Below are positions 5,296 to 57,337 of a DNA stretch of 64,000 nucleotides, piece by piece. The position numbers and the translations under genes are program-made. The stretch covers positions 3,092-67,091 of the forward strand of contig CAYTWE010000004.1 of NCBI GenBank assembly GCA_964440985.1, written 5' to 3'. This stretch comes from an uncultured Lentisphaeraceae bacterium (GTDB taxonomy: Bacteria; Verrucomicrobiota; Kiritimatiellia; RFP12; UBA1067). The first letter of the stretch is position 1. Each line of letters starts with the position of its first letter. The notes beneath the pieces were generated by a model. It was not told the DNA's origin and searched no databases. It saw only the letters and a list, made by a program, of their open reading frames with translations.

Positions 5296-6931
5296 GTGCT
5301 ATTGCCTCGGCTACAAGCCCGCAGAACAGCGGATGCGGTTCGGTCGGACGCGATTTGAACTCAGGATGGAACTGGCAGGCGATGAAGTACGGATGCGACG
5401 GCAGCTCCACAATCTCCGCCAGCGAACCGTCGGGAGACACACCCGACACGACAAGGCCGGCATTCTCCATCGCCTTCTGACATGGCGTCCCGTTCGCAAA
5501 TTCGTAGCGGTGTCTGTGCCGCTCGGATATGTTCTGCCGTCCATAAAGCTTCGCAGCGAGCGAGCCTTTTTTCAAGACGCACGGGAACGCTCCGAGACGC
5601 ATTGTTCCACCCTTTTGCACAACGCCGCGCTGCTCCTCCATTAGATCTATCACCGGATGCGGCGTACCCTCGTCAAACTCGGTCGAATTTGCGTCCCGCC
5701 ACCCAAGGACGTCTCTGGCATACTCGATCACCGTACACTGCATCCCAAGGCAGATTCCGAGAAATGGCACGCCGCGCTCCCGCGCATACCGTATCGCCGC
5801 AATCTTTCCGTCAACGCCCCGGGAACCAAAACCGCCAGGAACAAGGATTCCATCGATGCCACGCATCGTCTGCTCACCGGCAAACTCCTCCGCCTCCACA
5901 GGCACGACCTCCACCCTGCAGTTCATCGACATTCCGGCGTGCTGAAGAGCCTCATGAATCGACTTGTATGCATCGCGTATGGATATGTACTTGCCCACAA
6001 GCGCAATGCGGCAGGACCGCTTCGGCTTCGTCGCCTTGCGAACAAGAGTGTCCCACACCGTATGCCGTATCGGCCATATGTCGAGATGGAGCTGACGCAG
6101 CACCTGTTCATCAAGCCCCTGCTTCCGCAGCTCTCGCGGAACGGCATACACGGAATCGGTGACATCCCTTTCCTCTATCACACACTCGCGCCTGACATTG
6201 CAGAAAAGCGCAAGCTTCCTCAGATGTTCTTCAGGTATTGCCATCTCAGTTCGGCATACAAGGATGTCCGGAACTATCCCGATGTTCCGCAGCATCCCGA
6301 CGGAATGCTGCGACGGTTTCGTCTTAAGCTCCCCGGCGGCCTTCAGGTATGGCACGAGCGTGAGATGTATGAAACAAGTGTTCTCAAACCCCTCCTCAAA
6401 ACGGAACTGACGGGCTGCCTCCAGAAACGGAAGGCTTTCAATGTCTCCGGACACTCCGCCAATCTCGCACAGGACGATATCCGGGCTGCATTCCTTCGCC
6501 CGTCCCGCAGACTTTGCGCCACGTCCGACGTCACCGGCGCTGCGTATCGCCGCCTTTATCTCATCGGTGATGTGCGGCACAACCTGAACAGTTCCGCCAA
6601 GATATCCGCCTGCGCGTTCACGCGCCAGGACGTTCGAGTAGATTCTGCCGGACGTGAAGTTGGATGCCTTTGTGCATGTCACACCCGCAAACCGTTCATA
6701 ATGTCCCAGATCCAGATCCGTCTCAGCCCCGTCATCCGTGACAAACACCTCGCCGTGCTGATATGGGGACATTGTACCCGGATCAACATTGAGATACGGG
6801 TCGAGCTTCTGCATGAACACCTTGTATCCGCGGCTCTTCAGCAGAAGCGCCAACGATGCGCTTGTGATGCCCTTTCCGAGCGAACTCACAACACCGCCTG
6901 TGATGAAAACATACTTTACCGGTCTCTTCAT
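5282..6931 (-). CDS. pyrG: CTP synthase.
   Basis: [22 protein letters not shown]...GHYERF synthetase domain plus a glutamine amidotransferase domain. The start is taken at the internal Met (MKRPVKYVF). The gene overlaps the carB start by 13 nt. Confidence 0.93.
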
Positions 6932-7049
6932 GCGAAAACCAGATAGCACACACCGTGCCAAACGCCCACATGCGGCATTGCGCCGCCCGAAAGACCGCAA
7001 ATTTCATCGGCGTGCTACAAGTTCTGCCTATGCGCCACGCCGACTGGAA

Positions 7050-12058: not shown

Positions 12059-12622
12059 TCAAATCAGACCGGGCAACAGCCAGCGGAACCAAGGACGCCG
12101 CTTCGCCGAAATGCCAACAGGCTTGCCTTTGTCACTTGTTAACGTCTCCCATGGCTTAATGCGAATCACCTGAACATCCTTGGGAAGAACGACCGGCTTA
12201 TCCTGGATCATGTTCACGCTCTTCATGTTCGCCGGGAAGCCGGTGGCTTCGCATTCGACCTCCTTGTAGAAGAAGTAGTCGCTCACCTTGTAGCGGTAAA
12301 GCGTACCCATGAGCGCATCTGCCTTCGCGTTCTCCAGCGCGTCATATGTGGCCGACGCCTTGGCTGCATGGATGCCCCAGTTGACATCAGGCGAAGGCAC
12401 GGGTGCAGACCTGCCATCGGAGGAGGCGAAAATCCAGAACCAGCAGGAGGATGTTCCCGTCCCCTTCACGCGCTCGTTCCTGATTGTGTAGTCGATGTAG
12501 TACGGATTGCAGCTTCCGTCCGACATCGTCGGCGCAAGTTGCGTATCGCGTTCAACATGATAGGATGTGCTGCATCCCGCCATCAGCAAGGCCGCACCGG
12601 CAACCATCATCATCTGTTTCAT
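12059..12622 (-). CDS. Hypothetical lipoprotein.
   Basis: Signal peptide with lipobox (MKQMMMVAGAALLMAGCS) and a GGAG RBS. No recognisable domain. Confidence 0.6.
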   Translation of the reverse strand: MKQMMMVAGAALLMAGCSTSYHVERDTQLAPTMSDGSCNPYYIDYTIRNERVKGTGTSSCWFWIFASSDGRSAPVPSPDVNWGIHAAKASATYDALENAKADALMGTLYRYKVSDYFFYKEVECEATGFPANMKSVNMIQDKPVVLPKDVQVIRIKPWETLTSDKGKPVGISAKRRPWFRWLLPGLI

Positions 12623-12698: not shown

Positions 12699-13271
12699 AT
12701 GTCAATTAAGATATCATTTTTTTTTTATTGTCAATCCCCCCCCCCCCCCCACACACACACACACACACACACCACCGCCACCACTGTGGATTGGGTCATT
12801 CCCCTGATCTCTGATGGCATCGACAGGACGGCGCTTCCCTTCGCAAACCGCGCCCCGCACGCGGCCGTTCCGCAGTTCGCGCCCAATGCCGCCGTCACTG
12901 TGACACGCAACAAGGGCAAGTCCCGCCACGGAAAGGATGTCGCACCGGTCTCAGTCTCCTTCCCGAACATCGCCGCCGCAGACCAGGCGGACAAGGCCGT
13001 GCGGCCTTTCGACTACGAGGTCACGGTCGAGGCAAAGGAGTGCGACTTCGATAAGACGTGGATGGTCAAGCGCGTCTATTCACCAGGCTTCTACCGTGGC
13101 GCGAAGAAAGACGAGCCGACAGCAACGTGCGTGTTTGCGGCGGAAGAACTGCCACGCGGCAACGGACATGAACCCATCGCGCGCGACCGCACGTTCCGAT
13201 TCGCCGTCCGTCCCGCCAACTGCTTCGGCGCATTGGGCCGCCCCATCCGGTCGGACTGGATGGTCGGATGA
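12699..13271 (+). CDS. Hypothetical ORF whose 5' end spans the T10, C15 and (AC)11 tracts (the only substantial plus-strand ORF here); coding status uncertain.
   Basis: 190-codon ORF with plausible amino-acid composition in its 3' two-thirds. There is no RBS or signal peptide. The repeats encode FFFY, PPPP and HTHTHT, so tract-length changes would shift the frame. Confidence 0.25.
   Translation: MSIKISFFFYCQSPPPPHTHTHTHTTATTVDWVIPLISDGIDRTALPFANRAPHAAVPQFAPNAAVTVTRNKGKSRHGKDVAPVSVSFPNIAAADQADKAVRPFDYEVTVEAKECDFDKTWMVKRVYSPGFYRGAKKDEPTATCVFAAEELPRGNGHEPIARDRTFRFAVRPANCFGALGRPIRSDWMVG
12700..12772 (-). promoter_or_regulatory. Promoter of the lipoprotein gene with an A10 homopolymer inside the -35/-10 spacer, flanked upstream by G15 and (GT)11 tracts; candidate phase-variable promoter.
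   Basis: On the minus strand the order is (GT)11, G15, A, TTGACA (reverse complement of 12729-12734), the 15-nt spacer AT-A10-TGA, then TATCTT (reverse complement of 12708-12713). TGA immediately precedes the -10, so it is an extended -10. The plus strand shows T10 at 12717-12726, C15 at 12736-12750 and (AC)11 at 12751-12772. Confidence 0.5.
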
Positions 13272-22678: not shown

Positions 22679-22690
22679 GGATTATACCAT
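22679..22690 (-). promoter_or_regulatory. Extended -10 (TGGTATAATC) promoter for the DUF1080-kdgK-porin operon.
   Basis: The reverse complement is ATGGTATAATCC, about 30 nt upstream of the ATG at 22643. Confidence 0.5.
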
Positions 22691-22714: not shown

Positions 22715-25525
22715 TCAATGGGCCTCAAGCCAATTCCGGCCGACGCCGACGGACACCTCTATCGGAACTCCGACGTCGAGTGCGTGCTCCATCTCGCGCT
22801 TCGCTATGTCCACGACCTGATCCGCCTCCTCCTTCCGGACGTCAAACAGCAGTTCGTCGTGTATCTGAAGAATCATCCTGGACTTCAATCCGGCCTTCTT
22901 GATTGCACGGTCCACACGCACCATGGCGAGCTTGATCATGTCCGCCGCAGTTCCCTGCACAGGCGTGTTTATCGCATCGCGCTCCGCCGCCGTACGAGCC
23001 GTTGCATTGCGCGAGTTGATGTCGCGCAACGTCCTCCGCCGCCCGAGCAGCGTCTCCGCGTATCCGGTTTTGCGAGCCTTTGCGATGGCTTCGTCCATGT
23101 ATCTCCGAACCGCCGGATAGAGCTTGAAATACGTATCAATCAACGCGGCGGCCTCCGTCCGCGTCACTTTAAGCCTCTGCGCAAGGCCGAACGCGGATAT
23201 TCCGTAGATGATGCCGAAGTTGACCATCTTGCATTTCGAACGCTGCTCCGGGGTGACATCCTCCGGCGACACGCCGAAGACGCGGGCCGCGGCATCGCGG
23301 TGGATGTCCTCACCACGCTCGAACGCGCTCTTCATCGCCTCGTCTCCGCTCATCGCAGCCATCAGTCTCAGCTCTATCTGCGAATAGTCTGCGGAAACGA
23401 GCAGATGCCCGTCATCATGCGGAACGACTGCGGCGCGTATGTTCTTGCCGCGCTCAGTCCGCACCGGTATGTTCTGCAGGTTGGGGCCGCTTGACGAAAG
23501 CCGGCCAGTTTCGGTGAGCGACTGCGCGAACGTGGTGTGGATGCGTCCGTCCACCGGATCTATGCACTGCGGAAGCTTCTCCACGTACGTGGACTTAAGC
23601 TTGGAGCAGGTGCGGTACTCAAGAATGTCGAACACGACGGGATGCAGGCCGATGACGCTCTGCAGCGTCTTCTCGTCCGTCGACCAATGACCCTTCGTCG
23701 TGCGCTTCACTCCGGTGGGGTCGAGCTTGAGCTTGTCGAACAGCAGTTCGCCTATCTGCTTCGGCGAATCGATGTTCATCCCGGGATCGCCGTAGGACAT
23801 TATGGATTTGACGAGTCCCTGTATCTCCCTGTCCAGCGAAACGCCGTACGCCCGCAGCGCCGCCACGTCAATCTTTACGCCCGTAAGCTCCATCTCGGAA
23901 AGGATGTCTGAAAGCGGCTCCTCGCTCTCTTCGAGAACCTTGATCAGTCCGGCGTCCTTCACGGCGGGACGGAGTACGTCCTCAAGCTGCAACGTGACGT
24001 CAGCATCCTCGGCCGCGTAGTCCTTCACAAGCTCAGGCGGCAGGTCGCGCATGTTCTTCTGCGGCTTTCCGCGCTCCTTCGCGCCGATCAGATCCTCGAT
24101 AGGCACCGGTGCATATCCAAGACGCTCCCGCGCCATCACGTCCATGCCATGCCGTGCGGCGGCGTCCAGCACATAGTGTTCGAGCATCGTATCATGCACA
24201 GTAGACCCGAACCGTATTCCGTAGCGCTTCAGGAGCGTCGTGTCGAACTTCGCGTTCTGCGCTATGAGCGTCTTGTCCGGATCGGCGAACGCCTTGGCGA
24301 ACACCTGCACAAATTCCCTCGCAGAGACTGCGGATGACATCGAGAACGAAAACAGGTCGTCGGACGCGGCAACGCCTCCACCCTGCGGGACTGCGGCGTA
24401 CCAGGCGCGGCCAGGCTCTGTGGCGAAACTCATGCCTACGATGTCGGCGGTGCGGGCATCGGTGCTTGTTGTCTCGGTGTCAAACGCAAAGCGGGGAGCA
24501 GCCTCAAGTATCGCGGCCAACTCCCTGGCCTGTTCAATCGTCGTGACAAGACTGTACTCGTGCGGAACGTCGCGCAGCGTACGAAGGTGTTCCGGATCAG
24601 GTCTGTCATCGTTTCGCGACGTCGGCTCGTTGGCCCGTACGTTGACCGGAGACAGATATATGCCGAACCTCTTGGCGAGGTTGTACAGCTCGTATTTCAC
24701 GCACACCGCAGTCAGCCTGTCGGTGTCCGGCGGCGTAAGGCGGCACGTCTCGAGGTCTATGTCGATAGATACATCCGTCCGGATCGTAGCGAGGAATTTC
24801 GACAGCTTTGCGTCCTCCACTCCGGCGGACACCTTTTCGCCGATCTTGCCGCCTATTTCGGACGCATGGGCAATGATGTTCTCGATGCTGCCCCAGTCGT
24901 TGAGCAGCTGCGCGGCCGACTTCCCGCCTATTCCCTTTATGCCTGATATGTTGTCTGCGGTGTCCCCGGCGAGCGCAAGGAAATCGATCATCTGCTTCGG
25001 ATGCGCAAGCCCCCACATCCTCTTTACGTCCTCCACGCCAAGCACTTCGGACGCCGATGCGCCCTTCCCAGGACGGAACAGCTTTATCCTGTCCGTCACC
25101 AGCTGCGCGGCATCCTTGTCCGGCGTGACGACATACACCATGTCGAACCCCTCCGCCACGGCCTTCTCCGCAAGCGTACCGATGACGTCGTCCGCCTCGA
25201 ATCCTGACTTCCGCACGACAGGGATGTTCAGGGCGTCAGCGACCTCGAACGAATACGGTATGTTCTCCGCAAGCTCCTCAGGCATCTTCTGCCTGTGCGC
25301 CTTGTACCCCGGAAACATCTCGTGCCTGAAAGTCTTGCCGTCGGGATCCATGGCCAACGCCACATGCGTCGGCGAAATCTCCTTCAGCACGGCCATCACT
25401 CCGTTCACGAAGCCAAGAAGAGCCGATGTGTTGATCCCGGAATACGTGATGCGCGGCTTGTTCAGGAACACAAAATGGCCGCGATACAGAAATGGCATCA
25501 AATCGATGACGCACAGCGTTTTCAT
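22715..25525 (-). CDS. polA: DNA polymerase I.
   Basis: 5'-3' exonuclease N-terminus ([18 protein letters not shown]), 3'-5' exonuclease and polymerase domains. The start is at MKTL; the ORF-track upstream extension is rejected. Confidence 0.93.
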
Positions 25526-25534
25526 AATGCGCCC

Positions 25535-25546
25535 GATTATACCACA
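25535..25546 (-). promoter_or_regulatory. Extended -10 (TGTGGTATAATC) 10 nt upstream of the polA ATG, giving a near-leaderless transcript.
   Basis: The reverse complement is TGTGGTATAATC-gggcgcatt-ATG, with no room for an RBS. Confidence 0.5.
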
Positions 25547-25568
25547 ATGCCCATGCCGCATGGAGCGG

Positions 25569-26439
25569 TCAGTGGTCGTGCCGCCCCTCGCCGTGCCATG
25601 GGATGAACGGCGGCACCTCGTCGATGCCGGCGGCAATCCTCTGGCGAACGGCCTCATACAGCAGAATCGTGGCGGCGGCGGACACGTTGAGGGAGTCCGC
25701 AAGGCCGAGCATCGGAATTCGTACGCGCAGCTCCGCTCCGTCCATCCACTTCTCCGTGAGGCCGTACTGCTCCGCGCCAAGCGCCACGGCGACGTTCCCC
25801 GTGAGATCAACCTCGAAATGCAGCCGCTCCGCATGTGGCGTAGCCGCAAGTATCTTGAACCCATTCGCCTTGAGCCAGGCCAAGGCCTCCTCGGATGTCG
25901 CCTCGACGATCGGCACCGAGAACATCGTGCCGGTAGACGCCCGCACCACGTTCGGGTTGTGTATGTCGGTCGTGCGGTCGCACACGATCACGGCGGACAC
26001 CTTTGCGGCGTCCGCGCTGCGGAGGATCGTTCCGAGGTTGCCGGGCTTCTCGATCGCCTCAGTCACCACAACAAGCGCGTTTGGAGGAAGCGAAAGGTCT
26101 GAAAGCCGTTTGGAGACGTGCGGCCCGGTCATCAGCAGACCGTCGGGGCGCTCCTTGTACGCCATCTTCACGAACGCCGTCTTTGAACACAGAAACACGT
26201 CCGCGCCCGCACGTTCGGCGTCATCCACGAGATTCCGTTCGTTCTCGTTTTTGAGGTACAGATCCGGACAGTGGAAGATTGCGTTCGGACGATATCCGTT
26301 GTCGAGCGCCCGGCGGCATTCACGAAAGCCCTCGACTATCATCTCACCCGTCTCCTCTCGCTCCGAACAGGAGCGAAGCTTGACGACGTGCTTTATCTTC
26401 GGATTCGCTGGACTAGTCAGTTCAGTTCTCACTTCCGGA
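25569..26439 (-). CDS. TrmH/SpoU-family RNA 2'-O-methyltransferase (RlmB-like).
   Basis: SPOUT domain (GNVAVALGAEQYGLT...LNVSAAATILLYE) with an N-terminal substrate-binding domain. The start is estimated at the GTG at 26439 after a GGAG RBS. Confidence 0.65.
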
Positions 26440-27070
26440 TCTCCTGCTGCTTCTGCTCCTTCGGGCTTTCGTACGGGCGCACACGCAAACGCGCACCGAC
26501 GCCCTCGCATATGCGGCGGCAGCGCTCCTGCTTCTCAGGCGAAGTGACCGGTTCGCCCACGACCGTCATCACAACGTCCGGCACGAATCTCGCCACCTCT
26601 TCGGCAAACTTCAGCATGGCGGGATACGCCGCCGCGCCGAACTTCGGACGGCACATCGACAGATACTCCTCCGGATCGTCGGTGTTGAGGCTTATCGAGA
26701 CCTCATCGACAAGCCCGGAAAATCTTGAAGCCGTAGGCGCTCCCGCAATCAAATCGGAAAGGCCGTTCGTGTTCACGCGGATCTTCACCTGAGGCCACCT
26801 GCCGCGAATGAACTTCGCGACCTCAAGCAGAACGTCAAGGCGTTCCGTCGGCTCGCCGTAGCCGCAGAATACGATTTCGCGGAACCGTTCGAAATCCCAG
26901 CCTGAAAGCGAACCCTCAATCTCGCACACCGTCGGCTCACGCTCCAGCCAGAGCGAACCGGACCCGAACACGCCGTCGGCGTTGTTGCGCAGGCAGAACG
27001 TGCAGGCGCACGGACACCGGTTCGTAAGGTTCACGTAGACCGAATCTTTCACCTGATAGGTAATGGTCAT
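26429..27070 (-). CDS. Small radical-SAM protein (CX3CX2C), TatD-associated-type.
   Basis: VNLTNRCPCACTFC near the N-terminus, 213 aa, with a GYGEPT glycine-rich SAM motif. Confidence 0.5.
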   Translation of the reverse strand: MTITYQVKDSVYVNLTNRCPCACTFCLRNNADGVFGSGSLWLEREPTVCEIEGSLSGWDFERFREIVFCGYGEPTERLDVLLEVAKFIRGRWPQVKIRVNTNGLSDLIAGAPTASRFSGLVDEVSISLNTDDPEEYLSMCRPKFGAAAYPAMLKFAEEVARFVPDVVMTVVGEPVTSPEKQERCRRICEGVGARLRVRPYESPKEQKQQEIRK

Positions 27071-28021: not shown

Positions 28022-28783
28022 TCAGGCCTTGGCGGCCGCAGAGATGATGCCGGCGAAGTCCTCGGCCTTGAGGGCGGCGCCGCCGATGAGACCGCCGTCG
28101 ATGTCCTTCTTGGCGAGCAGCTCAGCGGCGTTGCCGGGCTTCATCGAGCCGCCGTACTGGATGCGGACAGTCTCGGCCGTTTCGGCGCCAACGAGCTTGG
28201 CAAGCGTGGCGCGGATGAGTGCATGGACCTCCTGCGCCTGATCGGGCGTAGCCGTCTTTCCGGTTCCGATCGCCCACACAGGCTCGTACGCGATCACAAG
28301 CTTCGCGCAGTCCGCCGCCGTGACGTCCTTGAGGCCGACGTTCATCTGACGCTCGATGACCTCGTTGAGCTTTCCGGCCTCGCGCTCCTCAAGCGTTTCG
28401 CCGACGCAGACGATGGCCGTAAGCCCCGCCGCGATCACAGCACGCGTACGCTTGTTCACCGTCTCGTCCGTCTCGCCGAAGTACTGGCGGCGTTCCGAGT
28501 GACCGATGATCACGTACTCGACCCCGGCGTCAACGAGCATTCCCGTGGAGATTTCGCCGGTGAACGCACCCTTCGCCTCCCAGTGCGCGTTCTCCGCACC
28601 GGCCTTGACCTGTGTTCCCTTGCAGGCCTCAACTGCGGCGGGAATGTCGATTGCGGGTGTGCAGCACACGATGTCGACGTTATTGAAATCCTTTGTCGCC
28701 TCAGCGATTGCCTTCACGAGAGCCGCCGTCTCCGAGGGCTTGACGTTCATCTTCCAGTTGCCGGCGATGATTTTCTTGCGCAT
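28022..28783 (-). CDS. tpiA: Triose-phosphate isomerase.
   Basis: MRKKIIAGNWKMN... with AYEPVWAIGTG and the GGS phosphate loop. The start is at the internal Met. Confidence 0.92.
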   Translation of the reverse strand: MRKKIIAGNWKMNVKPSETAALVKAIAEATKDFNNVDIVCCTPAIDIPAAVEACKGTQVKAGAENAHWEAKGAFTGEISTGMLVDAGVEYVIIGHSERRQYFGETDETVNKRTRAVIAAGLTAIVCVGETLEEREAGKLNEVIERQMNVGLKDVTAADCAKLVIAYEPVWAIGTGKTATPDQAQEVHALIRATLAKLVGAETAETVRIQYGGSMKPGNAAELLAKKDIDGGLIGGAALKAEDFAGIISAAAKA

Positions 28784-28905
28784 TTCTGTTCTGACCTTTC
28801 TGTATCCTTGCTTCTTGTTGCAAAATGCCCGCTGGAGGGGTTTCTCTCCAGACATATGTCCGCCCTCCTGCCGACACCCGCCGGGCATGGGAAAGCTTTT
28901 GGCGC

Positions 28906-28917
28906 GTAATTATACAC
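28906..28917 (-). promoter_or_regulatory. -10 element (GTGTATAAT) for tpiA, with a 5' UTR of about 120 nt.
   Basis: The reverse complement is ATGGTGTATAATTA; a long structured leader lies before the tpiA ATG at 28783. Confidence 0.35.
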
Positions 28918-31392: not shown

Positions 31393-31401
31393 ATTGTATC
31401 A
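31393..31401 (-). promoter_or_regulatory. Extended -10 (TGATACAAT) 7 nt upstream of the ATG, giving a leaderless transcript.
   Basis: The reverse complement is TTATGATACAAT-gcggcac-ATG. Confidence 0.45.
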
Positions 31402-33624
31402 TAATGAACCGCCGAGGACACGTGCAACGTGCGGAAGGAAGGCGGCGGACAACGCCTTGTATCCGGCGTCGGTCGGGTGGGCTGAATCCGACATCATCCC
31501 GTGCACGATGTCGCCGTTTGCGTCAACGAATCGTCCCCCCGCATTCTCAAAGCTGACCTTCCCGTCATATCCGTACGACGGGATTCGCGACAAAAGCGCA
31601 TTCAGCCTGTCCACGTTCCGGCGAAGCGGACTTCCCGGTGTCCCCGCCGGCAGGGCGCCCATCAGCAGAATGCGCGCCTGCGGCTGGATGCGCCGGATGC
31701 GGCCGATCAGGCCTCTGATCGCCTGCGCCGTCTCCTCCGGTGAATCCGCCTTCCCCTCTTCGTCCGGCACAAGGTTGTTTCTGCCGAGCATGATTACAAC
31801 CAGCTGTGTACGCACGTTCTTGAGTTCGCCGTTGTCGACTCGCCAAAGCGCGTTCTCCGTGCGGTCGCCAGCACAGCTCATGTTCATGACGCGCACACGG
31901 CGGTCGAACATCGCCTTCCAGCGCGGCAGCGTCAGCGAGTCGTCCGTCTCGCCGATGGAGTCGATGCCCGACCACAGATGGAGCGCATCGTCGCCGATGA
32001 ACACGACATTCGGATTCGTGCGCCATGTCTTGGCTTCCGCCAATATGTAGTCATGCCGTTCGCGCCAGTCATAGCCAACGGCCCGTACGTTCTCCGCCGG
32101 CTGCAGGGCACGGCTGGCCGGAACGCCCTCCGGCGTCGGGGCGGCGTTCACGCCCATCCGGCGAAGCCTCGGAATGTGATCGCCCATCCGCCGAAGGAAA
32201 TCGCCGTAATTGAGGGCGGACTTCTCCGACCACAGGATTTCCGCAACGGCGCACAGCCTCGGAAAGCCCTGCCACATAAGCTCTTCCGGAACACGTATTC
32301 CCTCCGACCAGAGAAGCCCCTCCGAACCCAGCACATGACCGGCAAATTCGCCGGGAACGCCGTCTGTCGGATCGAAAGAGTAGACGCGGGAAAGCGGCAG
32401 CCCGCCGCCGTCCGACCGCCACGGATCGTCGGGAATCCCCTGCTTCTGGTCAAGGTACATCAACCGGTTCGGACAGACCACGCAGTCGACGCCGTTCGTG
32501 GCGGCGAAAGCCGCCTTCTCCGTTCCAAGCCAGCACATGGCCGCCGTGTTTCCGCAGATGCCGCCGTCCAGCATCTCCTCCCAGCCAATGGCACGTTTGC
32601 CCTTCTTCATCAGATACTCCGCGAAATGGCGCATCAGCCACGTCTGCAGCGCATTCTCGTCCTTCAGCCCGGCGGACTTGATGCGGGCCTGGCATTTCGG
32701 ACACTTCCGCCAGCGGATCTTCGGACACTCGTCGCCGCCGATGTGGATGAACTCGGAATGCTTGAACAGGCGACAGTATTCGTCAAGAACGCTTTCAAGG
32801 AAGGCGATTGCGCGGTCGTTTCCGGCGCAGTACAGCTCGCGCTTGACGCCCCATTTCACGTCCACGCGGCGTTCAAGCCGCTCTCCAAGGCACGAGAATT
32901 CCGGATAGGCCGTAAGCGCGGCCCTGGAGTGTCCGGGAATCTCAAGCTCCGGCACGATCTTGACATGATGCCGTTCCGCGAACTCGACGATCTCCTTGAT
33001 ATCCTCCTCCGTGTAGAAATGCGGCCCGTACCGCCGTCCGTCGCCCTCAGCGGAGTTGTCGAAGCGCGGACTTTCCGCCCGAACTGCCCCCCGTGCCGTC
33101 AGCTCCGGCCATTTCCGGATCTCGATGCGCCACCCCTGGTCTTCCGTCAGGTGCCAATGCAGAACGTTCAGCTTGTTGAACGCCATGGCCTCGATTATCT
33201 TCTTGATCGTCTCCTTGCCGAAGAAATGGCGTCCTTCGTCCACAAGGCAGCCCCGCCAGCGGAAGCGCGGCCAGTCCCGTATGCGGCAGAACGGATACGA
33301 GACCTGCTCGCCCACGCCCTGCGCCAGCTGCCGAAGCGTAATCCGCGCATAAAACGCGCCGTCGCCGTCCGACGACGCCACGCGAACGCCACTGGCATCG
33401 ACCGTCAGTTCATATCCCGCTTTCGGCTGGGCCGCATCAAAGACGTCAACCACATTTGTGCCGCTGTACATCCCGTCACGCCATTCAACCTGCCGAGGCG
33501 CAGGAACGATCGACGGCAGGATGCCTGTGCCACCGGCACCCGCCCCCGCATATGCGAAAACGGCTACTGAACACGCAAGCGCGCAGACCGCGCCCCTCAC
33601 GGACATTTTCTTTTCACTCATCAT
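31399..33624 (-). CDS. Bifunctional secreted beta-N-acetylhexosaminidase (GH20) fused to a C-terminal SGNH/GDSL esterase domain.
   Basis: GH20 catalytic core (RFRWRGCLVDEGRHFF...LNVLHWHLTEDQGWRIEI). C-terminal VVFIGDDALHLWSG...LLMGALPAG matches SGNH blocks I and III. Signal peptide present. Confidence 0.7.
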   Translation of the reverse strand: MMSEKKMSVRGAVCALACSVAVFAYAGAGAGGTGILPSIVPAPRQVEWRDGMYSGTNVVDVFDAAQPKAGYELTVDASGVRVASSDGDGAFYARITLRQLAQGVGEQVSYPFCRIRDWPRFRWRGCLVDEGRHFFGKETIKKIIEAMAFNKLNVLHWHLTEDQGWRIEIRKWPELTARGAVRAESPRFDNSAEGDGRRYGPHFYTEEDIKEIVEFAERHHVKIVPELEIPGHSRAALTAYPEFSCLGERLERRVDVKWGVKRELYCAGNDRAIAFLESVLDEYCRLFKHSEFIHIGGDECPKIRWRKCPKCQARIKSAGLKDENALQTWLMRHFAEYLMKKGKRAIGWEEMLDGGICGNTAAMCWLGTEKAAFAATNGVDCVVCPNRLMYLDQKQGIPDDPWRSDGGGLPLSRVYSFDPTDGVPGEFAGHVLGSEGLLWSEGIRVPEELMWQGFPRLCAVAEILWSEKSALNYGDFLRRMGDHIPRLRRMGVNAAPTPEGVPASRALQPAENVRAVGYDWRERHDYILAEAKTWRTNPNVVFIGDDALHLWSGIDSIGETDDSLTLPRWKAMFDRRVRVMNMSCAGDRTENALWRVDNGELKNVRTQLVVIMLGRNNLVPDEEGKADSPEETAQAIRGLIGRIRRIQPQARILLMGALPAGTPGSPLRRNVDRLNALLSRIPSYGYDGKVSFENAGGRFVDANGDIVHGMMSDSAHPTDAGYKALSAAFLPHVARVLGGSL

Positions 33625-33641
33625 CAACACCTTTCCTTCCG

Positions 33642-43542: not shown

Positions 43543-44607
43543 TTATTGCTCTTGACGCTTCAGGTGGCGGTCGAGAAAGACGTAGCCGGTCTCTGTTGCG
43601 GATGGCGGCGGACGGTGTCCCTGTGCGTGATTCACGAGTTTCAGCCTTTCTGGGTTGCGTTCATATCCGGAAGCCCTGCGCATGAGCGCACCGCTTGAAT
43701 CGTCATCATAGCGTCCGGCTATCAGGCAGAACGGTTTGCCGCCCGAAAGTGAGAGAAGCCCCGCATGATCCATGCCTTTGGCGCGCACTTCGTCAAGTTT
43801 TCCGCCCCAATACCACACATCGCTCCAGTTGGACTGATCCCAGCGAATCCCGAAATCGCTTGCGACAATCACCTTTATGCGCGAATCGATGCACCCCGCA
43901 TAGAAAGCCATCTTGCCGCCGAGCGAATGACCGATGATTCCGATGCGGTTGGTGTCTACACGCGCATCCTCGCAGAGCAGATCGATGAGAAGCCGCGTAT
44001 CGAACGCAAGCTTTCCGATGCCGGTCCAATCCGGATGGTCTGCGAGAAGTTTTCGTCCCGCGTGTCCCCATTTCGCCCACTGGTCTTTCGGTGCATTTGC
44101 CGGGTCGTACATAAGGTGGTAGGCGTCCGCCGAAATTGTCACATAGCCGCGTTTCGCGAGATCCGACATGTACGACACGGCGGCATAGAACGTCAGGTTC
44201 GTTCCTGATGGAGCGAGCGGAGAATCTGCACTCCCGGTTCTCGGATCGAATCCAAGCGTCGCCTCCGGAAAGTAGAACGGGACAACAACCGCCGGCAACG
44301 GATATCGGTCTGCGCCGACTTTCGGCACCGCCATCATCACACGCTGTTCCGTGGATGGGCCGTTGGCCTGGCGGAACTCCTCGACGTCAAACTCTGTGAA
44401 CCGGTACACGCCGACCTTTTCCACTTTGCGCGGAAACGCCGCATACGACGGCGGCGCTTCGATGTATGCCCCCCAATCAGATGCCGACGGCATCGATGCA
44501 CGCTTCACTTCATTTGGGGATGCGCATCCCGCTGATGCTGCGCCAAACGCAAGAAGCGGTATGCATCCTATCAGCAAGGCACATCTCTTCATGAGGACAT
44601 GATTCAT
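43543..44607 (-). CDS. Secreted alpha/beta-hydrolase (carbohydrate-esterase-like).
   Basis: Signal/lipobox-like N-terminus and nucleophile elbow GHSLGG. Coupled ATGA overlap with the upstream CN-hydrolase gene. Confidence 0.55.
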   Translation of the reverse strand: MNHVLMKRCALLIGCIPLLAFGAASAGCASPNEVKRASMPSASDWGAYIEAPPSYAAFPRKVEKVGVYRFTEFDVEEFRQANGPSTEQRVMMAVPKVGADRYPLPAVVVPFYFPEATLGFDPRTGSADSPLAPSGTNLTFYAAVSYMSDLAKRGYVTISADAYHLMYDPANAPKDQWAKWGHAGRKLLADHPDWTGIGKLAFDTRLLIDLLCEDARVDTNRIGIIGHSLGGKMAFYAGCIDSRIKVIVASDFGIRWDQSNWSDVWYWGGKLDEVRAKGMDHAGLLSLSGGKPFCLIAGRYDDDSSGALMRRASGYERNPERLKLVNHAQGHRPPPSATETGYVFLDRHLKRQEQ

Positions 44608-45656
44608 TTGATTTCGCCGCCGCGAAGTTCAACAGAGCGGCTGTAGTAGTCGTCCCAGAGGATGAGACCGAACTCCTTAATCAGATTGTCGACCGGAACG
44701 GATGGATCGTTGGAGAGGAACGTCACGCATCCGACAGCGCCCGGATTGCGCACTTCGACCTTCTGGCCGTACTTGTCGACGGCATGTTGCAGTCCGCCCC
44801 AATTGTCATCAAGATGGCATACACGGTAGTTGGTGTTGATGCGGAAAGTCCCCGTGCGGAAATATCCCTGCGAATGGAATATCGCCTCGCCGGACGGCCC
44901 CCATACGTCCTTGGCGAGTTCGCCAAGCGTCGCCCCGACAAAGTAGCTCTGGCAGGTGTAGGCCCATACGCGCTGCCAGAAGTCGCCGTGATAGGCGCTG
45001 GAGAAGCAGATCACATCAGGCTTTTCGCGCCTGTATGCTTCGATCAGGTCGCGGAAGTTGAGGTCGAAGCATACGGCAAACCCAACTCGCCCGAAATCCG
45101 TATCGATCACAACCGGACTGTCGCCCGGAACGATCGGGAGTTCCTTCCAGAGTATTTCCCCCGGCGTCGGATATGCCTTGTCGTATACGCCCACCACATC
45201 ACCTTCGCGGTCTATGAGATAGGAGGCGTTGGCAAAGCGTCCGTCCTTTCGCTGACGATAGGAGTTGAACACAAGATATGCGCTGTGTTCCTTCGCATAG
45301 CGCTGAAACTCCTTGAGCAGCAGATCGCCGCGCCGCTTCACCCAATCGAACTTGTCGGCGGGGGTTGCGCCGAGCCATGAATCCACACCCTCCGGCAGAA
45401 CGATCAAATCAGGTTTGTTGGCGATCTCCTTGTCCATCCCGCCTTTCCAGTGGCGGAAACATTCTTCGACGGTGGGCTTGCGCCCTTTCGGAAGCGCGGG
45501 ACGCGCCAATCCGATGATCGATACCGTAATCTCCCGCCGGACGACCTTGACCTGCTTCTTCACCGGCACGGGATCGCACGGCGGCGGAAATACTTCATCG
45601 CAGACACCGACATAAACAGACGCCACTGAGCAAACAGCCAAAATTATTCTTTTCAT
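44604..45656 (-). CDS. Secreted carbon-nitrogen hydrolase (nitrilase superfamily).
   Basis: CN-hydrolase blocks (RVGFAVCFDLNFRD with catalytic Cys) and a signal peptide MKRIILAVCSVASV. The start is set at the internal Met; the transcript is leaderless. Confidence 0.6.
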   Translation of the reverse strand: MKRIILAVCSVASVYVGVCDEVFPPPCDPVPVKKQVKVVRREITVSIIGLARPALPKGRKPTVEECFRHWKGGMDKEIANKPDLIVLPEGVDSWLGATPADKFDWVKRRGDLLLKEFQRYAKEHSAYLVFNSYRQRKDGRFANASYLIDREGDVVGVYDKAYPTPGEILWKELPIVPGDSPVVIDTDFGRVGFAVCFDLNFRDLIEAYRREKPDVICFSSAYHGDFWQRVWAYTCQSYFVGATLGELAKDVWGPSGEAIFHSQGYFRTGTFRINTNYRVCHLDDNWGGLQHAVDKYGQKVEVRNPGAVGCVTFLSNDPSVPVDNLIKEFGLILWDDYYSRSVELRGGEIK

Positions 45657-45664
45657 GGCGGCAA

Positions 45665-45673
45665 TGATACCAT
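45665..45673 (-). promoter_or_regulatory. Extended -10 (TGGTATCAT) 8 nt upstream of the CN-hydrolase ATG (leaderless).
   Basis: The reverse complement is ATGGTATCAT-tgccgcc-ATG. Confidence 0.4.
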
Positions 45674-46712
45674 ATCGGCATCCTTTATCAAACCGAAATC
45701 CGATTGCCACTTGTCAAAGCAGCACGATAATCCTTGAAATCCGTGGCAAACAAACGATGTGTGGACACAACGACGCAGGGAGAGAAGCGGAGCGAGACCT
45801 TCAGGCGCATGGCCGCCCCTTCTTCATGCGCACACGCAGGACGACCTTACGGCGCGGCAGGGCGGCCAGCGAGATGGGTACGGATGCCAACCGTTGCCGC
45901 TCCTTGAGGAAGTCGCCGACCGCCTGAAGTTGGCACAAGGCGAAGGCAATCCGAAAAAGTGTACTAAAGACACTAAGAGCCAAGGTCAAGACCAACTTCA
46001 GAAGAAGCAAATGCACATTCGGAGCAACTGAATGCGACCATGGGTCATCGTGGCACAAATTCAGTCGCATATGCTCTGACAAGTGACAGCCGGAATCCAA
46101 TGTCAACCACCAATCCGCTTTTGGAGGTTCCCCAAATTTTTATTGGCGGACGAGGCGTCGCGCAGGTTGCGTCATCCGGTAGGGCGCGACGTCCCTGTCG
46201 CGCCGGGTTGTATCATGCGGGCGCGGAAGTTCGTTGCTTTCGCTGCGGTGAGTTCTGGAGTTTTGGAGTTCGGGGCGAATTGTGGAACGACCTCGCGCCT
46301 CCAAGCCTTCGAAACTCCCGGTAGCTAAAGCGACAGCAGCACTGCGGCATCTGCCCGCAGAAGATCTCTTCGAGGGTGTGCTGTGGACGCGCTCTGTGTT
46401 CCCGTAGCCGAGTTTTCACTTGGCGCAACGTGAAAACCGCGACATCGCCCTTTGTTTACAGCGGTTCAGAGATTTTCTTGCCCGAAAAAATGGGGGATCT
46501 CCAACCAATCCGCTTGGATTGCAATTCACCTGTCAGACACCTGACTGCTTGCGTTTGCTCTTGTATTGATTAAGAAGAAAAGCAAACGTGCGTCTTCAGA
46601 ACGTCAACTTCACAAGCGACACCCATCTGCCCTTCCGCCAGAATCAGCTTAAGCAGACGCCGACTTCTGACAGACGTAATCCAAATCGGCAAATACGCCA
46701 CACAACGAATGA

Positions 46713-46800
46713 TGGCGGAGGGGGGGGGATTCGAACCCCCGGTGGACTTGCGCCCACACAACCTTTCCAAGGTTGCACCATCGACCACTCGGACACCCCT
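46713..46800 (-). tRNA. tRNA-Ser (anticodon GGA), 88 nt with a long variable arm and an encoded CCA.
   Basis: The reverse complement is GGAGGGGTGTCCGAGTGGTCGATGGTGCAACCTTGGAAAGGTTG...GGGGGTTCGAATCCCCCCCTCCGCCA. The anticodon loop is uuGGAaa. It has a type-II tRNA cloverleaf. Confidence 0.85.
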
Positions 46801-46818
46801 CCAAACGAAAAACGGCAC

Positions 46819-46828
46819 ACATTATACC
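46819..46828 (-). promoter_or_regulatory. Extended -10 (TGGTATAATG) promoter 18 nt upstream of the tRNA-Ser 5' end.
   Basis: The reverse complement is TTTTGGTATAATGTGTGCC. Confidence 0.45.
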
Positions 46829-46900
46829 AAAACACCCCCACCGACGCAAGAGCCCCGCCTGAATGGCATCATGGTGCTGTATATCTGCCGATTTCGCAGA

Positions 46901-48565
46901 TCAGATGCGCTTTGGCGCGGCGATGCCGAGCAGGTCGAGACCTTTGGCAAGCACCCTGCCGAACAGCGCACACAGCTTAAGTCTTGCGTCACGAACCTCC
47001 AGCTCGCTCTTCAGTATCGGATTCTGCTGATAGAACGACGAGTATATCTGCGCCGTCTGGAACAGGTAGTCCGCAAGAAGCGAAGGTTTGTAGTTCTCGG
47101 CCGCCTTGCGCACGGTGTCCCCGAACTTGAGCAGCTGCAGCGCCAGAAGCTTCTCCGACTGCGATGCGACGTTGAAGCGGAACGAAGCGACATCCGGATT
47201 GCCGGCCTTCTCCATGAGCGAACATACGCGAGCGTGTGCGTACTGCAGATATGGGCCGGAGTTGCCTTCAAGCGCAAGTGCCTTGTCCCAGTTGAAGTCG
47301 ATCGCCGTTCCGGGGTCATGGCTGAGATCCGCATACTTCACCGCACCAAACCCGATCTGCTCGGCAAGCGCCTCGTCTCCGCCACGATCCTTCACGATAT
47401 CGTACGCCCGGCGCGTCGCCTCGGACAGAAGATCGTCAAGCTTGATCAGGTTGCCCTCACGCGTGGATATCGCCTTACCCTGATACGACATCAGTCCGAA
47501 CGGTACATGGACAAGCTTTGCCGTCATGCCCATCTTCCGGCAGATGATGAAGAACTGCTTGAAGTGAAGTATCTGGCGGTCATCCGTCACGTAGATGATC
47601 TCCGCCGGATCGTAGTCCCTGATGCGGCTCTCCACGCAAGCGATGTCCGACGTCGTGTAGTTGAATCCGCCGTCGGACTTCCTTACGATCGCAAGAGGCA
47701 ACCCCTCTTCCTCGAAACGGACTACGAGTGCGCCCTCCGACTCCTCAGCAAGCCCCATCTTCACGAGCCTATCCACGACAGGCGCCATCATGTCGCGGTA
47801 GAACGATTCACCGCGCCACGTATCGAACTTGACGCCAAGCTTGGCGTACATCCTGTTGAATTCGTTGATCGAAATTTCGATGAACCTCTTCCACAGCGCC
47901 ACATCATCAGGATCCCCCTGCTGCAGCTTCACCAGTTCTTCGCGACACGCCGCCTTCCAGGCTTCGTCAGCCTTTGCGCGTGAGGATGATTCCACATAGC
48001 ACTTCTCAAGCGTCGCCACGGCAAGATTGTCGCGCTCCTCCTGCGTAAGGCATTCGCGATATCCCTTGATGAGAATGCCGAACTGCGTCCCCCAGTCGCC
48101 AAGGTGGTTGTCCGCTATCACGTCATATCCGAGCGCACGGTACATCCTGTCTATCGCATTGCCGATCACCGTCGATCGGATGTGTCCGATATGCATCTGC
48201 TTCGCGGCGTTCGGCGACGAATAGTCGATCACAACCTTTCGACCGTCACCTATCTTGGCTATTCCGCAGTTGGAATCCGCCTCAAGCGCGGAAAGCGCAT
48301 TTCCGAGCCAGGCAGACGTTATCGTCACGTTCAGGAACCCAGGCCCCGCAACCTCCACCTTGTATTCGTCCGAGAGGCACTCGACGACTTTCTGCGCCGC
48401 CTCACGCGGATTCCTGAATCCGGCTTTCTTCGCAATTTTGAGCGCATCGTTGCACTGATAGTCGCCGAACTTTGGATCAGTGGCGGGCACCACCTTTATC
48501 TCCGGAATGTCCGTACCCGGAAAAGCCTTTTCAAATCCCTCTTTGAGCCATTCTGTAATCGTCAT
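46901..48565 (-). CDS. argS: Arginine--tRNA ligase.
   Basis: Arg-tRNA synthetase N-domain, HIGH-type motif (MHIGHIRSTVIG) and a DALR anticodon-binding C-terminal domain, about 555 aa. Confidence 0.9.
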   Translation of the reverse strand: MTITEWLKEGFEKAFPGTDIPEIKVVPATDPKFGDYQCNDALKIAKKAGFRNPREAAQKVVECLSDEYKVEVAGPGFLNVTITSAWLGNALSALEADSNCGIAKIGDGRKVVIDYSSPNAAKQMHIGHIRSTVIGNAIDRMYRALGYDVIADNHLGDWGTQFGILIKGYRECLTQEERDNLAVATLEKCYVESSSRAKADEAWKAACREELVKLQQGDPDDVALWKRFIEISINEFNRMYAKLGVKFDTWRGESFYRDMMAPVVDRLVKMGLAEESEGALVVRFEEEGLPLAIVRKSDGGFNYTTSDIACVESRIRDYDPAEIIYVTDDRQILHFKQFFIICRKMGMTAKLVHVPFGLMSYQGKAISTREGNLIKLDDLLSEATRRAYDIVKDRGGDEALAEQIGFGAVKYADLSHDPGTAIDFNWDKALALEGNSGPYLQYAHARVCSLMEKAGNPDVASFRFNVASQSEKLLALQLLKFGDTVRKAAENYKPSLLADYLFQTAQIYSSFYQQNPILKSELEVRDARLKLCALFGRVLAKGLDLLGIAAPKRI

Positions 48566-48598
48566 GATTTGCATCTCGGCGATGTTCCGCCGTCTCCG

Positions 48599-49126
48599 TC
48601 ACTTGCTGTTCTTCTTGAGTTTCTTGATTACCTTGTCGCGAGACCGCTCATCCATGTGGTCTACGTACAGTATGCCTTTCAGATGATCCGTCTCATGGCA
48701 GACGGCCCTCGCAAGAAAGCCGCGCACCGTTGCCATCTGCGGAACACCGCTGCAATCGACATACTGAACCGTAACCTCCTCCGGACGCGTAACGTCACCG
48801 CCGACGTTCGGGAGCGACAGGCACCCCTCTCGTCCCGTCTGCTCGCCGGATGTCGCCACAATCTCCGGATTGAAGAGCACAAGCGGCTGCTGCGTTCCGG
48901 CGTTGAAGAGCTTAGTCTCCTCGTCGTCCTCACAGCTCAGCGGAACATCTATCACGCAAAGCGCCTCGTCCCTGCCGACCTGCTCTGCCGCAAGTCCTAC
49001 ACCCTTGGCCTTGTACATGGTCTCAAGCATGTTTTCGGCAAGAGCCACAAGCTCCGGCGTCACCGCCACCTTGCGCGCCTTTACCCGCAGCTTATCACTG
49101 CCGTATTTTTCAATTGGAAGTATCAT
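48599..49126 (-). CDS. def: Peptide deformylase.
   Basis: GVGLAAEQVG, CLSLP (EGCLS motif) and HETDHL metal-binding motifs. Confidence 0.9.
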   Translation of the reverse strand: MILPIEKYGSDKLRVKARKVAVTPELVALAENMLETMYKAKGVGLAAEQVGRDEALCVIDVPLSCEDDEETKLFNAGTQQPLVLFNPEIVATSGEQTGREGCLSLPNVGGDVTRPEEVTVQYVDCSGVPQMATVRGFLARAVCHETDHLKGILYVDHMDERSRDKVIKKLKKNSK

Positions 49127-49179
49127 GTCTCCATCCGTTAAGTAAACCTATGCCTAAATCACGCCCGGCGCCGGCAGCC

Positions 49180-52113: not shown

Positions 52114-52121
52114 GTTGTGGC

Positions 52122-52134
52122 GTATTATACCACA
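52122..52134 (-). promoter_or_regulatory. Extended -10 (TGTGGTATAATA) promoter for the M16 peptidase gene.
   Basis: The reverse complement is TGTGGTATAATA-cgccacaac-ATG. It sits immediately after the eno terminator. Confidence 0.5.
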
Positions 52135-52135
52135 C

Positions 52136-52180
52136 AAAAAAGGAAAACGGCGCATCCGCACCGGCGGATGCACCGTTTCC
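52136..52180 (-). terminator. Rho-independent terminator of eno.
   Basis: On the minus strand the sequence reads GGAAACGGTGCATCCGC-cggt-GCGGATGCGCCGTTTTCC followed by TTTTTT. Confidence 0.65.
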
Positions 52181-52199
52181 GTTATCCGAGAAGGTCGGT

Positions 52200-53492
<1,293 letters not shown>

Positions 53493-53523
53493 TTACTGTT
53501 CCTTAAGTGGAAAATTGCCGCGT

Positions 53524-53552
53524 AGTCTACCATCATCGCCCATGAAAGTCAA
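53524..53552 (-). promoter_or_regulatory. Sigma70 promoter TTGACT-17 nt-TGG-TAGACT for eno.
   Basis: Reverse complement of 53547-53552 is TTGACT; the spacer is exactly 17 nt; the extended -10 is TGGTAGACT (reverse complement of 53524-53532). The leader is about 28 nt with an AAGGAA RBS. Confidence 0.5.
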
Positions 53553-53585
53553 ACCGGCGCAAAAACGGAATTGTCGATTCCATGC

Positions 53586-54398
53586 TCAGCGACGCTGTCC
53601 GAAAAGCCATTCCAGCGCAGCGTCGTCGGCGTAGGTGCATGACCAGACATTGTGTCCGGCCTTCGGTATCTCATTGTATGTCACATTACCGCCGACGGAC
53701 TTCAGGGCATCCACCATGTCGCGGGAACGCTTCACCGGAACAACGCTGTCGGCGTCGCCATGGACTGCGCGAACCGGAAGCTCCTTCAGCCTCGGCGCAC
53801 AGGCGACGTCACCGCCGCCGCAGATTGGCATTGCTGCGGCGAACTTCTGCGGTTCGCGCTGTGCAATGTCCCACGTGCCGTAGCCGCCCATGGATATCCC
53901 GGTCACATAGACGCGATCCCGGTCAACCGGATATCTTGCCATGACGTCATCTATCAGCGCCATTGCCTTCGCCATGTTCACGGACGGCTCGGGGTTCATC
54001 GTGTGGGCAGGTGCGCTCCACGGAGTGTCCACCCACTGCGCCCCGTTCGGGCACTGCGGCGCAATGACGATCGCCTTCTGTCCGGTGCGTTCGCTGTAGC
54101 CGATGATCTGCGGCACTCCATGGACAAGCTGCGCAACGTTGTTCGTGCCGCGCTCGCCTGCACCATGCAGGAACAGCACCAGCGGCACCTTCTCCATCCA
54201 GCCGATGCCACGCGGAACGAATATGCGGTACTTCAGTCCATTGAAGTCGCAGGTCTGCGTGACGGTTTTCGCCCAGGCAAGATCCACCTTTTCGGGGACT
54301 TTCGCGTCTTCGGAGATTGTCGGAACGACCGTGCTGCATCCGGCCGCGAACAGCCCGGCAAGCATGCACACTGCAATTGGCTTGAAGATGTTTTTCAT
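53586..54398 (-). CDS. Lipoprotein alpha/beta-hydrolase esterase (phospholipase/carboxylesterase or PHB-depolymerase-like).
   Basis: Lipobox MKNIFKPIAVCMLAGLFAAGCS; oxyanion motif LFLHGAGE; nucleophile motif GISMGG. Start at 54398 (leaderless); the ORF-track upstream extension is rejected. Confidence 0.65.
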   Translation of the reverse strand: MKNIFKPIAVCMLAGLFAAGCSTVVPTISEDAKVPEKVDLAWAKTVTQTCDFNGLKYRIFVPRGIGWMEKVPLVLFLHGAGERGTNNVAQLVHGVPQIIGYSERTGQKAIVIAPQCPNGAQWVDTPWSAPAHTMNPEPSVNMAKAMALIDDVMARYPVDRDRVYVTGISMGGYGTWDIAQREPQKFAAAMPICGGGDVACAPRLKELPVRAVHGDADSVVPVKRSRDMVDALKSVGGNVTYNEIPKAGHNVWSCTYADDAALEWLFGQRR

Positions 54399-54404
54399 GG
54401 GACG

Positions 54405-54416
54405 GATTATACCACA
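54405..54416 (-). promoter_or_regulatory. Extended -10 (TGTGGTATAATC) 7 nt upstream of the esterase ATG (leaderless).
   Basis: The reverse complement is TGTGGTATAATC-cgtccc-ATG. Confidence 0.5.
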
Positions 54417-54446
54417 ACGCGATGCGCCGCCGCTCTTTTGCGGACA

Positions 54447-54455
54447 TGATACAAT
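54447..54455 (+). promoter_or_regulatory. Extended -10 (TGATACAAT) 7 nt upstream of the ubiE ATG; divergent, leaderless partner of the esterase promoter.
   Basis: The plus strand reads cggacaTGATACAAT-acgcggc-ATG. Confidence 0.45.
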
Positions 54456-54462
54456 ACGCGGC

Positions 54463-55784: not shown

Positions 55785-55790
55785 GCGCAG

Positions 55791-55796
55791 ATTATA
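55791..55796 (-). promoter_or_regulatory. -10 TATAAT (TGcTATAAT) 6 nt upstream of the SDR ATG (leaderless).
   Basis: The reverse complement is TTGCTATAAT-ctgcgc-ATG. Confidence 0.45.
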
Positions 55797-57288: not shown

Positions 57289-57337
57289 GTCAACCCTTTT
57301 CCTTCCTCTTTGATTTATCTACTCAACCGCTCCATGA

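Follow-up and report, generated by a model that had tools for sequence, protein, structure and literature searches.

The stretch of DNA analysed here, in the following called the window, comprises 64,000 nucleotides (nt) of contig CAYTWE010000004.1 from an uncultured Lentisphaeraceae bacterium of the Kiritimatiellae, and the element in question is an extended −10 promoter motif located directly in front of the start codons of seven of its genes. All features lie on the minus strand unless marked (+). By direct reading of the sequence, the motif was found upstream of polA (TGTGGTATAAT at 25536-25546, 10 nt before the ATG at 25525; coding sequence 22715-25525), of a glycoside hydrolase-like (GH-like) gene (TGATACAAT at 31393-31401, gap of 7 nt, ATG 31385), of a CN hydrolase gene (TGGTATCAT at 45664-45672, gap of 7 nt, ATG 45656, with a −35 sequence TTGATA at 45691-45686), of a PreP-like M16 peptidase gene (TGTGGTATAAT at 52124-52134, gap of 10 nt, ATG 52113), of a lipoprotein esterase gene (TGTGGTATAAT at 54406-54416, gap of 7 nt, ATG 54398), of ubiE/menG (TGATACAAT at 54447-54455 (+), gap of 7 nt, ATG 54463) and of an SDR gene (TGCTATAAT at 55791-55799, gap of 6 nt, ATG 55784). 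In all seven cases TGnTAnnnT ends 6 to 10 nt 5′ of the ATG, the TG stands one base 5′ of the TAnnnT hexamer, and the consensus reads TRTGnTATAAT. The base at position −1 is C at six of the sites and T at polA, and the gap of 6 nt at the SDR gene places the A of the ATG at the canonical +1 position.

For 43 window genes the starts were curated; 25 are preceded by a Shine-Dalgarno (SD)-like sequence, 7 by the start-adjacent extended −10 motif, and none by both. SD-like matches of at least 4 nt were accordingly counted for none of the seven genes versus 25 of the 36 other curated genes. The initial annotation of this DNA had listed the same seven genes as having an extended −10 motif at 6 to 10 nt and no SD sequence in the gap, and every site was present as described, the coordinates being right for six genes and off by one for the CN hydrolase. 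The recurrence of a 12-mer, GATTATACCACA on the plus strand and TGTGGTATAATC on the minus strand, was likewise borne out by the window count, with three exact copies (2027, 25535 and 54405) and two copies with one mismatch (22680 and 52123) versus 0.06 expected from shuffled sequences. A repeat or mobile element as the source of the 12-mer was rejected, the five copies being alike in TRTGGTATAAT(C) only.

Two further observations concern the arrangement of these promoters. The esterase gene and ubiE are divergent and share a 64-nt intergenic region (54399-54462) with two back-to-back extended −10 elements 32 nt apart, and because the footprints of two polymerases would overlap there, mutual interference or co-regulation is possible. 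Additionally, pyrG (ATG 6931; window 6931-6960) has TGTGCTATCTG followed by 8 nt in front of its ATG and no SD sequence, with the CTP_synth_N domain starting from residue 6; the TRTGn part of this element fits while the hexamer is without its final T, and pyrG is thus a possible, weak eighth candidate for a leaderless promoter.

Pfam boundaries, signal peptides and the polA orthologues indicate that the seven ATGs are the real N-termini. The 5_3_exonuc_N domain of the polA product covers residues 4-171 and is matched from profile position 2, the N-terminus M-x-K-L-F-I-I-D-L-M is kept in more than 70 orthologues, most of the alignments begin at residue 1, and the DNA 5′ of polA shows no conservation as protein among the orthologues. 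The Ubie_methyltran domain begins at residue 2 of the ubiE product and adh_short at residue 9 of the SDR, and the CN hydrolase product has a CN_hydrolase match. A signal peptide follows Met-Lys or Met-Thr in four products (GH-like protein, CN hydrolase, M16 peptidase and esterase), in the case of the esterase together with a lipobox; the GH-like product is an 800-aa secreted protein with the signal peptide MKASNLFFAAVAIFALPLVGG at its N-terminus, for which the Pfam search returned no match. The raw open reading frames (ORFs) overrun the starts of polA and of the M16 peptidase, esterase and CN hydrolase genes by 18 to 178 codons, and the coding potential gives no backing to these upstream extensions, which bears out the earlier claim that several ORF starts had been over-extended. 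Moreover, an independent gene caller, applied to near-identical public contigs, yielded the same 216-aa SDR and the same 270-aa esterase, and for ubiE no in-frame start was found within the intergenic DNA upstream of 54463.

A scan for the motif near starts was run on the window and on a sample of 617 kb of related Kiritimatiellae loci as a motif-centred test independent of gene calls, in which every ATG that begins an ORF of 100 codons or more was counted by its distance after TGNTANNNT. It gave a sharp ATG peak at 6-10 nt. In the relatives, 71 such ATGs were located at this distance versus 10.1 expected (p=1e-35), with counts of 9, 26, 12, 13 and 11 at gaps of 6, 7, 8, 9 and 10 nt, so that the distribution is highest at 7 nt with a shoulder at 9-10 nt, and none at 11-12 nt. 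With the polA sites removed, about 40 remained versus 10 expected (p=1e-12), and the window alone contained 7 versus 1.7 expected (p=0.0017). No excess was observed in the relatives for GTG (5 versus 7.8 expected) or TTG (5 versus 6.8 expected), the restriction of the excess to ATG held in every gap class, and the reversed and reverse-complement control motifs gave flat spacing profiles.

The composition of the signal was derived from a set of 74 non-redundant start-adjacent sites, which gave the consensus T-R-T-G-n-T-A-T-A-A/C-T, an AT-rich motif within a genome of 59% GC. The −35 region contains at most 0.14 bit per position across these sites, so that a conserved −35 is missing. A pyrimidine occupies position −1 at 57 of the 74 sites (77%, p=3e-6), as the Y(−1)R(+1) rule predicts for a +1 at the A of the ATG. 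The TGn extension accompanies 31% of the start-adjacent TAnnnT hexamers versus 7.9% of all TAnnnT hexamers, and hexamers without TGn contribute almost nothing to the spacing excess. A standard −35/−10 scan of positions 44000-57500 returned 3 sites versus a shuffle mean of 4.8 and caught one of the five leaderless promoters located there; due to the fact that these promoters lack a −35, such a scan misses most of them and is uninformative as a test.

The polA search provided 80 orthologous loci with 44-97% identity, almost all from gut, rumen or faecal metagenome-assembled genomes (MAGs) of Kiritimatiellae/Kiritimatiellia; the window itself comes from a gut or rumen member of this class. In the closest relatives (loci L007-L010 and L013) TGTGGTATAAT and the gap of 9-10 nt are kept in upstream DNA that is otherwise unalignable, and the gap of 9-10 nt is also found in L015 and L042. 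Among 72 usable orthologues, about 33-35 carry TGnTAnnnT ending 6-10 nt before the start, a count that takes in 14 TGnTATACT sites standing out of register under the label 'noTG', while 23 have an SD-like sequence instead and 14 have neither; the same gene therefore switches between leaderless and SD-led modes within the class. In three orthologues (L016, L017 and L074) an extended −10 with a gap of 6-7 nt is followed by GTG instead of ATG, and GTG-initiated leaderless mRNAs may exist in this class but would be rare. For ubiE, the metagenome scan yielded one true orthologue (L087, 62% identity), in which the identical TGATACAAT is located with a gap of 6 nt; the neighbour divergent from this ubiE has TGTGGTATAAT, a 30-nt leader and the SD sequence TAGGAGGTG before its ATG. 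Genes other than polA that are adjacent to the motif in the relatives begin at canonical N-termini, as seen for PurA (MNTVLVGAQWGDEGKGK), GpsA (MKIAVIGDGGWGTA), FGGY kinases (one of them MKKYLAIDIGASSGRH) and a GyrB-like protein. As a side observation, five of the records (L009, L010, L032, L039 and L084), whose polA is 44-82% identical to that of the window, have titles that include Limosilactobacillus gorillae, Clostridium sp. CAG:138, Faecalibacterium sp. CAG:74, Gemmiger sp. and Prevotellaceae; mislabelling or contamination of these bins is the probable reason.

The same motif was found within the window in front of transcripts with leaders, and all four cases named in the initial annotation were upheld. 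A metallophosphoesterase gene has TGTGGTATAAT at 2028-2038, followed by a leader some 65 nt long with the SD sequence GGAAGGAG before the ATG at 1957; the TTG at 2017, 10 nt after the motif at 2038-2028, was considered as a leaderless start and rejected in favour of this ATG. A 3-keto-disaccharide hydrolase gene has TGGTATAAT at 22681-22689 and a leader of about 30 nt (ATG 22643), and the same TGGTATAAT at 46821-46829 lies 18 nt 5′ of the mature end of tRNA-Ser(GGA) (46802-46713). The eno promoter, TTGACT-17-TGGTAGACT at 53524-53552, combines TTGACT with a spacer of 17 and a TG-preceded −10 TAGACT, and is followed by a leader of about 28 nt (ATG 53489). Since the motif also stands 5′ of a tRNA gene and of SD-led genes, it is most likely a promoter and not a ribosome binding site. 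The intrinsic terminator of eno (52143-52180), a 17-bp stem followed by a T run, ends 8 nt 5′ of the M16 motif and directly abuts the M16 −10, leaving no room for an M16 leader. Operon-internal genes of the window are without the motif and use GGAGG-type SD sequences.

Leadered promoters without TGn were also present in the window, including tpiA (28914-28909), 43499-43494 and 33647-33642. In-frame sequence lengthens the tpiA ORF by 35 codons upstream, to an ATG at 28888 (window 28781-28914), and a reading of TATAAT at 28914-28909 with this ATG behind a 20-nt leader without SD was rejected, the TIM domain starting from residue 39. The real tpiA start is the ATG at 28783 (MRKKIIAGNWKMN) with a GAAAGG SD sequence, preceded by a TTGCAA-18-TATAAT promoter and a leader of approximately 120 nt; the Rfam scan gave the tRNA as its sole match and none for the tpiA leader.

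Taken as a whole, the start-adjacent motifs are most likely extended −10 promoters giving rise to leaderless mRNAs or to mRNAs with leaders of 2-4 nt. They would represent housekeeping sigma-70/RpoD-type promoters of the extended −10 class (T-R-T-G-n-T-A-T-A-A/C-T), mostly without a conserved −35, to which the RNA polymerase holoenzyme would bind through the extended −10 without need of a −35. Transcription is predicted to begin at the A of the ATG where the gap is 6-8 nt, or 2-4 nt before it where the gap is 9-10 nt (polA and M16), and the resulting mRNA would offer no room for an SD sequence; its 5′-terminal AUG would be recognised by a ribosome carrying initiator tRNA, which is the leaderless route. 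The regime would be mixed, in that operon-internal genes and other unit heads rely on canonical GGAGG-type SD sequences and orthologues across the class switch between the leaderless and SD-led modes. The arrangement was found at 7 of the 43 curated genes (about 16%). With transcription-unit heads defined as genes that have an upstream gap of at least 40 nt or are divergent, 6 of 21 heads show it, or 7 of 22 (about 30%) when the GH-like gene, which falls outside this definition, is added.

Several points weigh against this explanation. Both the positions of transcription start and leaderless translation itself are inferred from the sequence, and the figures for the leaderless fraction come from 43 starts curated by hand within a single window of 64 kb. 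The database gene caller sets the ubiE start three codons downstream (222 aa), and ubiE may start at Met4, although AAAGG would then stand immediately in front of the ATG. The M16 peptidase has a second in-frame Met four codons downstream, and its start is ambiguous between Met1 and Met5, so that Met5 could be the true one. The 10-nt gaps of polA and M16 exceed the usual 6-8 nt from −10 to +1, making a leader of 2-4 nt more likely than none for these two genes. Finally, the GH-like gene is only 13 nt away from a co-directional GH20 gene, and it could also be translated off a read-through transcript.

The point on gap length leads to the alternative that survives best, namely that the mRNAs are not leaderless in the strict sense but carry leaders of a few nucleotides, with transcription starting 6-8 nt after the −10 and 5′-untranslated regions (5′-UTRs) of 2-4 nt at the sites with gaps of 9-10 nt. 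This was given a little less than an even chance, and it refines the leaderless explanation and does not contradict it. The shoulder at 9-10 nt, which takes in about a third of the relatives' sites in addition to polA and M16, and the retention of the long polA gap in the seven loci named above are in its favour, as is a pyrimidine followed by a purine 7-8 nt after the −10 in polA (cgggcgCAtt) and M16 (acgccaCAac). Against it stands the ATG-specific excess at every gap length. Furthermore, discriminators of up to 9-10 nt occur, and 5′-UTRs of at most 5 nt count as leaderless in the mycobacterial and Deinococcus literature, both of which likewise speak against it. For archaeal mRNAs, leaderless has been defined as fewer than 8 nt (PMC10783764), a definition that points the same way.

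For the GH-like gene only, co-transcription with GH20 (31399-33630) and termination-reinitiation coupling over 13 nt has to be weighed, in which case the −10 would be fortuitous or would serve as a minor promoter within the unit. On the same strand, GH20 ends with a TGA (31401-31399) 13 nt before the GH-like ATG, and no terminator was found between the two genes; that TGA is at the same time the 'TGA' of the GH-like TGATACAAT, meaning that the promoter reaches into the 3′ end of a coding sequence that runs in the same direction. Against coupling, the GH-like TGATACAAT with its gap of 7 nt is identical to the ubiE promoter, the base at −1 is C as at most window sites, and no SD sequence for internal initiation is present. 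Coupling was considered rather unlikely on this basis, and it and the leaderless route at this gene are not mutually exclusive.

It is very improbable that the TATAAT-like sequence promotes translation of longer transcripts as an AU-rich, SD-independent enhancer (through S1 binding and low secondary structure), in the manner of the Bacteroidetes-type 'group B'. In favour of this reading, the motif is AT-rich in a genome of 59% GC, and read-through transcripts are possible for polA and the GH-like gene, which follow co-directional genes at 43 nt and 13 nt, respectively. An enhancer of this kind does not account for the conserved TG two positions 5′ of the hexamer together with the invariant T-A...T across the consensus, which is typical of sites read by sigma-70 and not of ribosome binding sites. 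It is equally at variance with the presence of the motif 5′ of a tRNA gene and, at 20-120 nt, 5′ of SD-led genes, with operon-internal genes that lack the motif and use GGAGG-type SD sequences, and with the 17-bp terminator, whose end lies 8 nt 5′ of the M16 motif. Moreover, motifs of group B would be expected in front of all genes, operon-internal ones included (PMC6028130).

The reading of the motifs as chance −10 lookalikes in AT-rich intergenic DNA, with the real starts elsewhere, can appeal to the 24 of 35 window matches to TGNTANNNT that lie away from gene starts and to the over-extension of high-GC ORFs, which taken alone leave starts ambiguous, but it is almost certainly wrong and effectively refuted by the polA orthologues, by N-termini fixed through Pfam boundaries, signal peptides and orthologue alignments, by the spacing peaks in relatives and window with their flat controls, and by the retention of the motif while its flanks diverge.

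Compared with known systems, extended −10 promoters that lead directly into start codons are already known as a kind, whereas this lineage appears undocumented. Both for group C of GeneMarkS-2 (PMC6028130) and in the work of Zheng et al. (PMC3160421), leaderless genes are defined by a Pribnow box located 6-8 nt 5′ of the start codon. The likeness to Actinobacteria and Deinococcus-Thermus is close: a Pribnow-type −10 stands 6-10 nt before the first gene of a unit without an SD sequence, the other genes are SD-led, about 25-50% of operons are concerned, and orthologues swap modes (PMC6028130, PMC3160421). The same arrangement is found in the '-10 motif adjacent to ORFs' of Deinococcus-Thermus (PMC12340547) and in the TA-led genes of Zheng et al. 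2011. Unlike in these groups, the Kiritimatiellae, which belong to the Planctomycetes-Verrucomicrobia-Chlamydiae (PVC) superphylum and here have 59% GC, use a full TATAAT/TATACT hexamer in place of the degenerate TAnnnT of high-GC groups, and nearly all of their sites have the TRTGn extension and no −35. Their excess is also restricted to ATG, in contrast to the GUG-initiated leaderless mRNAs of Deinococcus deserti (PMC4007540). With the general class of extended −10 (TGn) promoters, including the Gram-positive TRTG '-16 region', the sites share the TG one base 5′ of the hexamer, the dispensable −35 and the T favoured two bases further up; the difference is that the motif is here tied specifically to start-codon-adjacent promoters.

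The initial annotation had called a large leaderless fraction unusual outside Actinobacteria, Deinococcus and Archaea, which is overstated in view of three sources. In GeneMarkS-2, 1028 of 4769 bacteria were assigned to the leaderless group C, with 25-50% of operons leaderless (PMC6028130), a range that the approximately 30% of unit heads in the window matches. Predictions of leaderless genes by Zheng et al. span many phyla, with substantial fractions in Acidobacteria, Aquificae and delta-proteobacteria, and these authors reported that orthologues in other groups switch between modes (PMC3160421). In Akkermansia muciniphila (Verrucomicrobia), Cappable-seq on mouse gut placed about 10% of the mapped starts at annotated start codons (PMC4782308). 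As a gut bacterium of the PVC superphylum, Akkermansia is the nearest precedent with experimental support (PMC4782308); it belongs to another class, its starts were measured while those of the window are predicted only, and the motif architecture of its leaderless subset was not described in that study. For the class Kiritimatiellae an SD usage of 63% has been given, and leaderless genes were not discussed there (PMC10783764). No description of leaderless genes in Kiritimatiellae was found in the papers searched, the genome-by-group lists of GeneMarkS-2 being outside this check.

On a wider scale, there is about an even chance that the gut and rumen Kiritimatiellae constitute an unrecognised leaderless-rich clade of the PVC superphylum, in which about one tenth to one sixth of the genes (among them polA, purA, gpsA and gyrB-like genes, differing by species) would be expressed in this way, nearly all from −35-less TRTGnTATAAT promoters and with orthologues flipping often over short evolutionary distances. 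If true, these bacteria would offer a natural system for the turnover of translation-initiation modes. A PVC class would also be added to the bacteria with a sizeable leaderless fraction, which bears on the question of whether leaderless initiation is ancestral or was gained repeatedly. No new mechanism is revealed; the main value lies in start-codon annotation, in promoter prediction in Kiritimatiellae MAGs and in the evolution of initiation modes. Gene callers trained on SD sequences mis-place the starts of such genes in MAGs, as with the database product of ubiE, which is 3 codons short, and the consensus is a ready promoter model for an uncultured lineage of glycan-degrading gut bacteria.

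Apart from the start-adjacent promoters, some minor observations were made in the window. The region of about 1 kb beside tRNA-Ser(GGA) (45714-46712) contains no convincing gene; a 94-aa ORF is without a Pfam match, no Rfam match was obtained, and a promoter-like TTGCCA-16-GATAAT site at 45704-45731 (+) points into the region, which may be left over from an element that integrated at the tRNA gene, or may encode an unknown RNA. If read from its first ATG (26510), the ORF for a SpoU-type rRNA methylase would share 82 nt with the radical-SAM gene in front of it (window 26429-26510); as its Pfam matches set in at residue 36, the actual start codon probably lies 3′ of this ATG. Finally, a small lipoprotein-like gene (12059-12622, minus strand) has in the intergenic region on its upstream side, at 12720-12775, a simple-sequence tract of T10, about C14 and (CA)11. 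Slippage could alter the length of this tract, making it a candidate for phase variation, and a C/CA-rich stretch is also present before the gene starting at 11901.

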